This document shows positions 27,319-29,221 of a DNA stretch of 64,000 nucleotides, piece after piece. The stretch comes from Candidatus Oxydemutatoraceae bacterium (GTDB lineage Bacteria > Pseudomonadota > Gammaproteobacteria > Poriferisulfidales > Oxydemutatoraceae). Within the stretch, counting starts at the first letter, position 1; the number at the start of each line of letters is the position of its first letter. A program made the position numbers and the translations under genes. The DNA lies in the NCBI GenBank assembly GCA_965219575.1, contig OZ244779.1:1409928-1473927 (forward strand), given 5' to 3'. Under the pieces are notes generated by a model. The model ran no database searches. It saw nothing but the letters and a program-made list of their open reading frames with translations, and was not told where the DNA came from.

Positions 27319-28628
27319 CTGTATCAATACCTCAAACGAATGTGTTTACACAATTAACCTCTTTGCCCGAAAACTGGCAACGAAAGCGATTACGGTATCT
27401 GTCCACTAAGCCGATTAAAAATGGACTGGGAGAAGCTGCGGATCATTATAACCCCAATCATCCACGCTATATTAGGATTACCGATATAGCTGGGCCAAGA
27501 CATCTACATTCAGAAACGTTCTGTAGTTTGCCACCAGAAATAGCTTCTGAAGCATTATTGGATAAAGATGACATTCTCATTTCAGCAGTAGGTGCAACTT
27601 ACGGAAAGTCATTTTATGCAAAAGAACTGAACGAAGACGCATGCTTTGCCGGATATCTAGTACGATTGTCGGCGATACCGGAGGTTAATCCTTCTTTCTT
27701 GGCTTACTGGACCGAAAGTCGTGACTATTGGGCACAAGTTGATGCCAACGTTATACAAGCAACTATACAAAACTTTAGTGCTTCTAAAGTCCGCCATTTA
27801 AGTGCGCCATTTCCTCCACTTGATACCCAGCAGCAGATTGCACGGTTTTTGGATGACAAAACTGCGCGTATTGATGGGTTGATTGAAAAGAAGCGCGAGC
27901 TTCTGGAATGTTTAGCCGAGAAACGCCAAGCCCTTATTACCCGTGCGGTTACCAGAGGCATTGACCCCGATACCCCGATGAAGCCTTCCAACATCAGTCT
28001 AGCGAGTGATAGCTCTGCAAATCAGACTGATTGGGCGGCACAAGTCCCGGAAGGGTGGGATAGCAATTGGCTAAAGTGGTCGGTCAATCTGTCCATGAAG
28101 CACTCAAAAGTAGAAGAGCAGGAGACACTTCCATATATCTCCAACGAGAATATTGCGTCGTGGACAGGAAAACTTCTGGTTGAGGAGCTGAAGCCGACTG
28201 AAACGAACAGTCGCATGTTTCGGAAAAATGATGTTCTGTTCAATAAACTTCGCCCTTACCTTGCTAAGGTTTATCACGCGACTTTTGATGGTGCGAGTTC
28301 AAGTGAATTGCTTTGTTTACGCCCATCAAATGTCGTTGAATCTCGTTTCCTTTTTTATGTGCTTTCATCCAAGAAATTCATTGACACAATCAATGCGGAA
28401 ACTTTTGGTGCCAAAATGCCTCGTGCAAACTGGGAAATCGTAAGTCATCAGTCGTTTCCGCTTCCTCCGCTCAACATCCAAAAGCAGATTGCCCGATTTT
28501 TGGATGAGAAAACTACTCAAATTGACCAGACCGTTGAAAAAGTTGAAGACAGCATTACACAGATGGAAGAGTACAGATCGGCACTTATCACTGCCGCCGT
28601 CACAGGGCAACTCCCGGAGCTAAAATGA
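27315..28628 (+). CDS. hsdS: Type I R-M specificity subunit
   Basis: Two target-recognition domains separated by conserved repeats (QQQIARFLDDKTARID / IQKQIARFLDEKTTQID). ATGA overlap with hsdM. Confidence 0.85.
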   Translation: MTVSIPQTNVFTQLTSLPENWQRKRLRYLSTKPIKNGLGEAADHYNPNHPRYIRITDIAGPRHLHSETFCSLPPEIASEALLDKDDILISAVGATYGKSFYAKELNEDACFAGYLVRLSAIPEVNPSFLAYWTESRDYWAQVDANVIQATIQNFSASKVRHLSAPFPPLDTQQQIARFLDDKTARIDGLIEKKRELLECLAEKRQALITRAVTRGIDPDTPMKPSNISLASDSSANQTDWAAQVPEGWDSNWLKWSVNLSMKHSKVEEQETLPYISNENIASWTGKLLVEELKPTETNSRMFRKNDVLFNKLRPYLAKVYHATFDGASSSELLCLRPSNVVESRFLFYVLSSKKFIDTINAETFGAKMPRANWEIVSHQSFPLPPLNIQKQIARFLDEKTTQIDQTVEKVEDSITQMEEYRSALITAAVTGQLPELK

Positions 28629-29221
28629 GCCTTGATGCAAAAACATATTTCAATCATCTCAAAGCCTATGTGAATGACGATTACATAGTACACAAGGGCA
28701 TTGGTGGTGAGGTAGTTCTTAAAGAGAAGTACTTCCTAGAGAAAAGCAGGAAGGCCAAAACCCGAGAGCTTCGCCTTTTTCTGCCTGGACCAGGCCTCGT
28801 CTTCAAACTTGATTTTGATAAAAAAAAGATTAAACCACCGCTATTCCATTTTCTTGACGACACTGCGAAGCCTTGGTCGAAACGCTGCGATTTTGTGATA
28901 TTTTATGTGAAACAAAGAATGTTTTGTGCTGACTGTATTGAGTTTAAGTCAGGGAGTATTGCTGGAAATACAGTAAAAGAACAGCTTCAAGCAGGTACTT
29001 GTTGGGTGCGGTCCCTTAAAAGGACAATTGAACACTATACTAAATACACTCGGAGAATCCATGTAAGAAAATTCCTATTTGGAGACAGGATTGACACAGG
29101 TGCGTATCTAAATTCTGACCGGCAACTCAATGCTGATCCGTCCATTCGCTATTATCATTTTGATGAAGTGCGAGGGCAGCACTTAGACCGCCTCCAGAAC
29201 GCTTCACATGAGGAGATTTGA
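28625..29221 (+). CDS. Hypothetical protein embedded in the Type I R-M operon (possible PD-(D/E)xK-like fold)
   Basis: 198-aa ORF overlapping the hsdS stop (ATGA) and ending 3 nt before the hsdR start. No recognisable family. CDFVIFYV...CIEFK gives a D...ExK spacing compatible with a restriction-endonuclease-like fold. Confidence 0.4.
   Translation: MSLDAKTYFNHLKAYVNDDYIVHKGIGGEVVLKEKYFLEKSRKAKTRELRLFLPGPGLVFKLDFDKKKIKPPLFHFLDDTAKPWSKRCDFVIFYVKQRMFCADCIEFKSGSIAGNTVKEQLQAGTCWVRSLKRTIEHYTKYTRRIHVRKFLFGDRIDTGAYLNSDRQLNADPSIRYYHFDEVRGQHLDRLQNASHEEI

Follow-up and report, generated by a model that had tools for sequence, protein, structure and literature searches.

A PD-T4-4_B-like putative nuclease without an ATPase partner is carried between hsdS and hsdR in a subfamily of Type I restriction-modification operons

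The window analysed here, a stretch of 64,000 nucleotides (nt) from Candidatus Oxydemutatoraceae bacterium (GenBank assembly GCA_965219575.1, contig OZ244779.1, positions 1,409,928 to 1,473,927), carries a Type I restriction-modification (R-M) operon with an additional open reading frame (ORF) between hsdS and hsdR. The first gene, hsdM (25138..27318, +), encodes a long form of the Type I methyltransferase subunit of 726 amino acids (aa), which matched N6_Mtase (1.4e-55), HsdM_N (1.1e-23) and the PADLOC model MTase_I (2.3e-270). Its end overlaps the start of hsdS (27315..28628, +), which encodes a specificity subunit of 437 aa with two target-recognition domains (Methylase_S, 2.2e-25 in two stretches; Specificity_I, 1.9e-81). 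The additional ORF, named X here, occupies 28625..29221 (+); PADLOC matches, hhalign, an AlphaFold2 (AF2) model and substitution rates, all given below, point to a 198-aa homologue of PD-T4-4_B-like PD-(D/E)xK nucleases without an ATPase partner. The last gene, hsdR (29225..32287, +), encodes the restriction and translocase subunit of 1020 aa with HSDR_N, ResIII, SWI2_SNF2 and T1R_D3-like domains. An initial annotation made from the sequence had named the neighbours as Type I R-M genes and had placed a 198-aa ORF at 28625..29221; the domain matches gave HsdM, HsdS and HsdR, and the ORF, which starts with ATG, was present as described.

The TGA stop of hsdS and the ATG start of X share the letters ATGA, and the TGA of X (29219-29221) is followed by 'ccc' and the ATG of hsdR, leaving a gap of 3 nt. 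Both junctions had been reported before and were read again at the same positions. The ATGA overlap was found in 33 of 43 loci, and the distance from the X stop to the hsdR start was typically 3 nt. In the window X and hsdR are in the same frame (29219..29227, TGA-CCC-ATG). Programmed read-through from X into hsdR was nevertheless rejected, because the common 3-nt spacer is 1-2 nt in loci L009, L019, L021 and L022 and is not conserved. The single good promoter-like site of the operon is a sigma-70-like match 5' of hsdM, TTGACA-17-TACGAT (25006..25034, +; 10/12 matches, the best site), which is likely, on weak evidence, to be the operon promoter. Within 24700..32600, promoter-like sites were not enriched over shuffled sequences, and no convincing internal terminator was found between hsdM, hsdS, X and hsdR. 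No Rfam family was found in 22000..36000.

X had been thought to match no recognised family, but this proved incorrect. The PADLOC model of PD-T4-4_B (PDLC04037) matched X with E=1.3e-7, aligning residues 6-155 with positions 3-148 of a profile of 190, and PADLOC models of PDC-M47B matched X more weakly. Searches of Pfam, NCBIfam, PHROGs and PDB sequences with X gave no match; Pfam and NCBIfam showed no helix-turn-helix (HTH) or other regulator domain, and no P-loop was found in the single 198-aa domain. Among 1.84 billion representative proteins, only 101 matched an X-family profile; all were of at most 217 aa, and none was a fusion protein that would provide a Rosetta-stone link. The scores were separated by a gap: the X family lay at or below 1e-23, and the remainder at or above 2e-8 formed a tail of proteins of about 170-220 aa. 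Three tail proteins (P0196, P0212 and P0213) reached 1e-40 to 1e-46 on the PD-T4-4_B models.

When the X family was compared by hhalign with a PD-T4-4_B-like set, the probability was 99.6% (E=8e-25, 176 columns). This set was picked from the X-profile matches themselves, a caveat that is offset by the independent PADLOC scores. It has only four invariant columns (D, D, K and Q), and they fall on D63, D89, K108 and Q120 of X. Identity between X and these relatives is about 20%, and the highly conserved, X-specific C-terminal segment QLNADPSIRYYHF aligns weakly with them. The profile comparisons established X as a full-length remote homologue of the PD-T4-4_B nuclease, component B of PD-T4-4/WonAB-type systems, and as a putative nuclease.

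The initial annotation had also pointed to residues compatible with a PD-(D/E)xK nuclease-like core. The segment C88-D89-F-V-I-F-Y-V...C101-A-D-C-I-E106-F-K108 is present with a D89-E106 spacing of 17, and D89, E106 and K108 are invariant among 30 X sequences. The invariant D63 (codon 28811..28813, +) closes the strand 'FKLD' and aligns with an invariant D of the PD-T4-4_B-like proteins. The invariant pair C88-D89 (28886..28891, +), which holds the 'D' of PD-(D/E)xK, stands at the start of strand 90-96, and the equally invariant E106-F107-K108 (28940..28948, +), the '(D/E)xK', ends strand 99-108. Q120 (28982..28984, +), 12 residues past K108 in helix 115-139, is invariant in X and in the PD-T4-4_B-like proteins. 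In the AF2 model of X (predicted local distance difference test score, pLDDT, 85; predicted template modelling score, pTM, 0.85), D89 starts one strand, E106-x-K108 ends the next, and a long helix with Q120 follows; the predicted order of strands and helix is the PD-(D/E)xK arrangement.

Foldseek searches of PDB and BFVD with this model returned no significant match (best E=0.11 and 0.009, TM-score at most 0.3). The weak matches were mostly PD-(D/E)xK enzymes, namely AddA, BstEII, Nt.BspD6I, BamHI, HincII, UL24 and Cas4-like proteins. The fold assignment of X rests on sequence homology and the motif. The nuclease-like core proposed earlier was supported by the full-length homology to PD-T4-4_B and by the columns invariant in both families. 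We consider the identity and architecture of X described here very probably correct.

Whether the ORF might be a frameshift product of its neighbours had also been raised, and this was not borne out. BLASTP of X against HsdR, HsdS and HsdM of the window gave nothing better than E=0.8, hhalign against the HsdR N-terminus gave a probability of 0.25%, and both HsdS (437 aa) and HsdR (1020 aa) match their relatives over the entire length and are not truncated. X was rejected both as an HsdR or HsdS fragment and, specifically, as an N-terminal piece of HsdR. The nuclease motif of HsdR is kept in the window, where D146...E160-L-K162 aligns with D151/E165/K167 of EcoR124I HsdR, and in divergent HsdRs from loci with X (X+ loci). 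The idea that X replaces a dead HsdR nuclease was discarded, since D146/E160/K162 are intact. The N-terminal PD-(D/E)xK (RecB-like) domain of HsdR resembles X in its D...ExK residues and in a conserved Q about 12 residues further on, as from K108 to Q120 in X; the corresponding residue after K167 of EcoR124I HsdR is Q179. It differs from X in showing no detectable profile similarity.

The remote relatives of X are found in a different setting. P0198, P0207 and P0192 are each encoded directly 3' of an AAA_15/AAA_21 ABC ATPase, and the ATPase of locus L124 scored 7e-106 on PD-T4-4_A and also matched the PDC-M47A model. PDC-M47 has the same layout of ATPase and nuclease; FAM_00005, the family of its A component, occurs in the HEC-01 cassette (ATPase and TOPRIM) as well. 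PD-T4-4 and the related WonAB consist of an OLD-family ABC ATPase and a nuclease of this type (PMC9519451; 10.1101/2024.01.29.577857; PMC12137116). WonB of the WonAB system requires its catalytic lysine, and it is toxic only in combination with active WonA; activation halts translation while DNA stays intact, and an RNA target has been proposed (PMC12137116). Purified EcPD-T4-4 cleaved none of 11 DNA substrates in vitro, and PD-T4-4 was reported to form complexes of nuclease and nucleoside triphosphatase (NTPase) (10.1101/2025.07.10.664194). X is like the nucleases of PD-T4-4 and WonAB in its size (about 180-215 aa), in the invariant D...D...(E/D)xK...Q pattern and in homology over the full length, and its relatives are defence effectors. 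It differs from PD-T4-4, WonAB and PDC-M47 in lacking an ABC-ATPase partner gene, in never forming a two-gene cassette and in occurring only in Type I operons.

A tblastn search with three ABC ATPases against 46 X+ loci and the window (632 kb) found no intact ABC ATPase. The sole trace was a truncated N-terminus of a PD-T4-4_A-type ABC ATPase of 64 aa with the Walker A motif GQNNTGKT, located in the window 1.2 kb 3' of hsdR (33479..33673, +), and a hidden ATPase partner of X was rejected on this result. The remnant scored E=4.6e-16 on the PADLOC model of PD-T4-4_A, 1.6e-15 on PDC-M47A and 2.5e-7 on the next family, AriA, and is 70% identical over 40 aa to the L124 ATPase. No other PD-T4-4_A-type trace was found in the window or in the other X+ loci. 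The remnant, of the ATPase type that the relatives of X normally have as partner, may be a coincidence or a relic of a neighbouring system.

X is well conserved. A search of 5.8 billion proteins gave 756 homologues at E<=1e-3, nearly all of about 203 aa. The best 120 were 62-99% identical to X and nearly all 202-204 aa long; they were unnamed or annotated 'hypothetical' and carried no Pfam domain. No X was found in plasmid and phage collections. An alignment of 30 X sequences contained 58 invariant columns, including D63, D78, K82, W84, K86-R-C-D89-F, D103-C-I-E106-F-K108-S and Q120. The median pairwise ratio of nonsynonymous to synonymous substitution rates (dN/dS) was 0.08 over 28 loci, and the least-diverged pairs gave 0.02-0.14. 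These data go far beyond what would be expected by chance, and X is a genuine and strongly constrained protein of about 200 aa under purifying selection.

X is frameshifted in a few homologous loci (L028-L031), in metagenome-assembled genomes (MAGs) where hsdM or hsdR is also fragmented or where X is the sole broken gene of the operon. These copies could be assembly errors or decay. Together with the ATPase remnant 3' of hsdR, they are what would speak for X as an artefact, that is, a frameshifted piece of HsdR or HsdS or the decaying remnant of a former PD-T4-4 system. We regard this as extremely improbable: X shows no similarity to HsdR, HsdS or HsdM; HsdS and HsdR are full length; a dN/dS of about 0.08, a length that stays near 203 aa in different phyla and the invariant motifs speak for a maintained gene; the remnant is unique to the window; and the broken copies need not reflect decay. 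Selection and conservation data have effectively refuted this explanation.

The genomic context of X was uniform. The arrangement hsdS-X-hsdR was found in all 51 X loci examined, down to 27% identity. These are 34 loci from genomes, the most divergent members of the family and two IMG/VR contigs. The initial annotation had asked whether homologues are consistently embedded in hsdMSR operons, and they are. The 34 genome loci came from Verrucomicrobiota, Chloroflexota, Acidobacteriota, Alpha- and Gammaproteobacteria, Desulfobacterota, Planctomycetota and a Synechococcus MAG. In all of them X lies directly 5' of hsdR, or close to it with extra cargo, and HsdR is 62-81% identical to that of the window; where enough upstream sequence was available, X follows hsdS and HsdM is 70-85% identical to that of the window. 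The most divergent full-length homologues (P0133, P0152, P0155, P0163, P0154 and P0144; 27-32% identity) also showed hsdS-X-hsdR, with HsdR 34-59% identical, and so did both IMG/VR contigs. The host operons form a subfamily with an HsdM of about 720 aa and an HsdR of about 1015 aa.

Pairwise distances of X correlated with the distances of both R-M subunits, at r=0.89 for HsdR and r=0.91 for HsdM. X evolves about 1.35-fold faster and has co-diverged with the operon from about 75% down to 27% identity. Extra cargo in X+ loci was located between X and hsdR and included, for example, an ImmA/IrrE protein with a DUF4411-like protein, a TIR protein and a 281-aa protein without known identity. Between hsdS and X there was no cargo apart from a 78-aa ORF in L037-L039, so that X stays next to hsdS. 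From this distribution, X appears to be confined to one Type I R-M subfamily, with signals that would couple its translation to that of hsdS.

Sampling from the side of hsdR gave a different view of the same subfamily. We collected 80 metagenome loci with HsdR N-termini 45-81% identical, 72 of which had at least 700 nt upstream. X was present 5' of hsdR in 5 of these 72 loci, hsdS directly abutted hsdR in 14, other inserts of 0.3-3.6 kb were found in 38, and 15 had no recognisable hsdS. The 34 genome loci had suggested X as an obligatory fourth subunit, an idea that the 5 of 72 loci ruled out. In a neighbour-joining tree of HsdR, X+ loci fell in one large clade and an outlier, L040. Members without X (X- loci) are found inside the X+ clade, with a direct hsdS|hsdR junction (L043, L047 and L053) or with other cargo (L042, L044, L045, L059 and L109). 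In L043, HsdR is 73-74% and HsdM 76% identical to those of the window, X is absent and hsdS abuts hsdR. Absence of the ORF from otherwise identical loci, with no phenotype, had been named as a point against an accessory effector; close relatives without X do exist, which covers half of this point. The presence of X-less relatives within the subfamily, most members of which lack X, indicated that X is a dispensable accessory rather than a core subunit. The simplest history is that X was acquired early, was then inherited together with the operon, and was lost or replaced several times.

These results bear on a further explanation, in which the R-M enzyme of this clade has X as an additional structural or regulatory subunit and X forms no separate defence layer. 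X might then help in assembly, alleviate or control restriction, or serve as an additional cleavage module that changes the way in which the enzyme cuts DNA. The start/stop coupling to hsdS, the 3-nt spacing to hsdR and the long co-inheritance with the operon are in its favour, and the conserved catalytic residues would fit an auxiliary DNA-cleaving role. We nevertheless consider it improbable, as the nuclease motif of HsdR is intact in X+ loci, complete M-S-R sets without X are found in sister operons at 73-76% identity, X contains no HTH or other regulator domain, and the homologues of X are effectors of abortive systems and not R-M subunits.

The junction between hsdS and hsdR is used by many other genes. 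Among the ORFs in the gaps of L042-L121 were 16 Septu-like PtuA ATPases (7e-94), with a PtuB HNH-type protein (1e-74) also present in 15 of these loci, and 11 genes for HTH plus Peptidase_M78 (ImmA/IrrE) proteins, 10 of them accompanied by a DUF4411-like protein of about 165-180 aa. Four ORFs clustered with a Schlafen/AlbA_2 plus HATPase_c_4 protein (domains taken from L080 alone), three encoded Fic/DOC proteins, three a 335-aa protein without known identity, and one a YhcG/DUF1016 PDDEXK protein. A protein of about 300 aa without known identity was common to the junctions of L044 and L012.

Several X+ loci carried insertions of their own. In L037-L039, the 78-aa ORF between hsdS and X is hydrophobic (L037:712-948), and a CAP12-PCTIR TIR gene lies between X and hsdR in L037 (L037:1930-2652). 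L126 contains a Hypoth_Ymh gene between hsdM and hsdS (L126:2348-2869) and an 88-aa ORF after X (L126:4706-4972), and L040 contains, between hsdM and hsdS, a gene for a lysine- and glutamate-rich protein of 414 aa with a hydrophobic C-terminal segment (L040:5387-6631). In three loci, the 60-80 nt past the X stop (L010:8612-8700, L016:1677-1760 and L011:8612-8690) resemble a relic of the 5' end of hsdR (ATGCCCGGCCATACCGAG...). These loci carry ImmA and DUF4411-like cargo after X, and the real start of hsdR is 0.7-1.9 kb further. Such a relic after X suggests that cargo was exchanged by recombination within the 5' region of hsdR.

We tentatively favour a reading in which X depends on the R-M complex for its control and may well serve as a second-layer effector, by analogy with PrrC in the EcoprrI locus. 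The dependence is inferred from two facts together: the relatives of X need a partner NTPase, and X is never found apart from an ATP-driven Type I enzyme. X would then be an effector nuclease for which the Type I R-M complex has taken over the function of the usual regulator, an ABC ATPase. Its synthesis would keep a constant ratio to that of HsdS and HsdR. The M2S/R complex would hold X latent, or X would depend on this complex, and X would cut nucleic acid when the R-M enzyme either becomes engaged or is put out of action by an anti-restriction factor of a phage. The target might be RNA, as proposed for WonB, and the outcome would be a second defence layer, abortive or additive.

A more specific form of this reading makes X a 'guardian' of the R-M system, of a kind not described before: a PD-T4-4_B-type effector nuclease that has dropped its ABC-ATPase sensor and uses the Type I complex as sensor or activator. 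We consider this possible but doubtful. Either the motor ATPase of HsdR or the M2S core could act as the partner. As part of this form, and just as doubtfully, inhibition or stalling of the R-M enzyme by phage anti-restriction proteins might unleash an abortive response that cuts RNA or DNA.

Control by the R-M complex has several observations against it. Besides the lack of a significant structural neighbour of X, the X- operons look intact, which means that any contribution of X is not essential to restriction. No X-specific signature columns were found in HsdR or HsdM when X+ and X- sequences were compared, with only 5-7 X- sequences and thus low power; this is mild evidence against a co-adapted interface. 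Finally, cargo in general accumulates at the hsdS|hsdR junction, and a place inside the operon is by itself no proof of functional dependence.

Alternatively, X might be an autonomous single-gene defence nuclease or toxin that is independent of the R-M proteins and, like the other cargo at this junction, is carried in the operon simply to be co-expressed. In favour of this, intact operons without X exist (L043, L047 and L053), HsdR and HsdM show no X-specific footprint, the junction hosts self-sufficient systems (Septu PtuA/PtuB, ImmA with DUF4411-like, Fic, Schlafen/AlbA and YhcG), and embedded genes are usually independent systems according to Payne et al. (10.1101/2024.01.29.577857). An autonomous X is, however, unlikely in our view. 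X was never found outside the R-M subfamily in 51 loci spanning 27-99% identity, whereas known embedded systems usually have far more non-embedded homologues (Payne et al., 10.1101/2024.01.29.577857). WonB, the characterised relative, shows no activity unless its ATPase is present (PMC12137116), and X lacks such a partner. X also co-diverges with HsdR and HsdM, and its coupled, hsdS-proximal position is kept even when cargo has been added.

For dependence of X on the R-M complex, PrrC offers the closest comparison. The prrC gene, too, lies between homologues of hsdS and hsdR. PrrC of EcoprrI (Type IC) and X are alike as accessory nuclease genes inside a Type I operon, the nuclease being predicted in the case of X. 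They differ in architecture, PrrC being an ABC-type NTPase domain fused to an anticodon-nuclease domain and X a lone PD-(D/E)xK-type domain; their sequences show no detectable relation, and the R-M subfamilies are different. No PrrC-named model was among the PADLOC, Pfam and NCBIfam matches to X, the PADLOC matches being PD-T4-4_B and PDC-M47B. PrrC is embedded in a Type IC operon, is kept latent through the R-M complex and is released by a phage anti-restriction peptide (PMC3874165, PMC12707154).

X is also an instance of the phenomenon described for genes embedded in Type I R-M, BREX, DISARM and Hma systems (Payne et al. 2024; TgvAB in Vibrio cholerae VPI-2), with which it shares the same orientation and an operon slot used by many types of cargo (10.1101/2024.01.29.577857; PMC11411939). 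Those cargoes typically also occur outside their host system, whereas X was not found outside.

The fold family, nuclease-NTPase systems and defence genes embedded in R-M operons are already known. PADLOC-DB v2.0.0 contained no dedicated model of X, giving weak cross-matches only, and an ATPase-less PD-T4-4_B-like nuclease confined to a Type I operon was not found in PADLOC-DB v2.0.0, Pfam, NCBIfam, PHROGs or the literature searched. PrrC is the R-M-embedded effector that reviews cite as controlled by a restriction enzyme, and X would be a second, unrelated and much simpler case: one nuclease domain of 200 aa between hsdS and hsdR in a Type I lineage that is widespread across many phyla. The system bears on how nucleases of the PD-T4-4/WonB type are switched on and what they cut, and on whether R-M-embedded genes are independent passengers or functionally wired to their hosts. 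It offers a natural contrast between close R-M relatives with and without X, and between homologous nucleases with and without an ATPase. If X did act as a guardian, a nuclease-NTPase defence module could exchange its NTPase for a wholly different molecular machine. In addition, the loci sampled here locate a highly active hot-spot for cargo at a single, defined junction within a Type I operon.

The surroundings of the operon in the window contain further defence-related genes. Divergent to hsdM, directly on its 5' side, lies a pair of ORFs (23094..23849, -, and 23834..24880, -) with matches to DUF5131 (1e-105) and the three-Cys-motif partner TcmP (TIGR04474, 2e-36). The pair matches the PADLOC candidates PDC-M30 and PDC-M41, and L051 also has a DUF5131 gene 5' of hsdM. 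The region 3' of hsdR (32509..35781) is AT-rich, with a GC fraction of 0.37-0.41 against 0.46-0.48 for the R-M genes. It encodes a pentapeptide-repeat protein (32509..33378), a DUF488 protein corresponding to PADLOC PDC-M19A (33673..34590, E=2.9e-98), a 181-aa ORF without known identity (34521..35066) and an RNase_T-family exonuclease (35098..35781), and looks like a mosaic defence island. A few kb 5' of the island are a PDDEXK_2 (Rpn-type) transposase-like gene (18153..19076) and an IS110-family transposase gene (19277..20278, -); these genes, at 18153..20278, are consistent with a mobile or variable region. About 6 kb 3' of the island, a giant ORF of 3299 aa was found (38645..48544, +).

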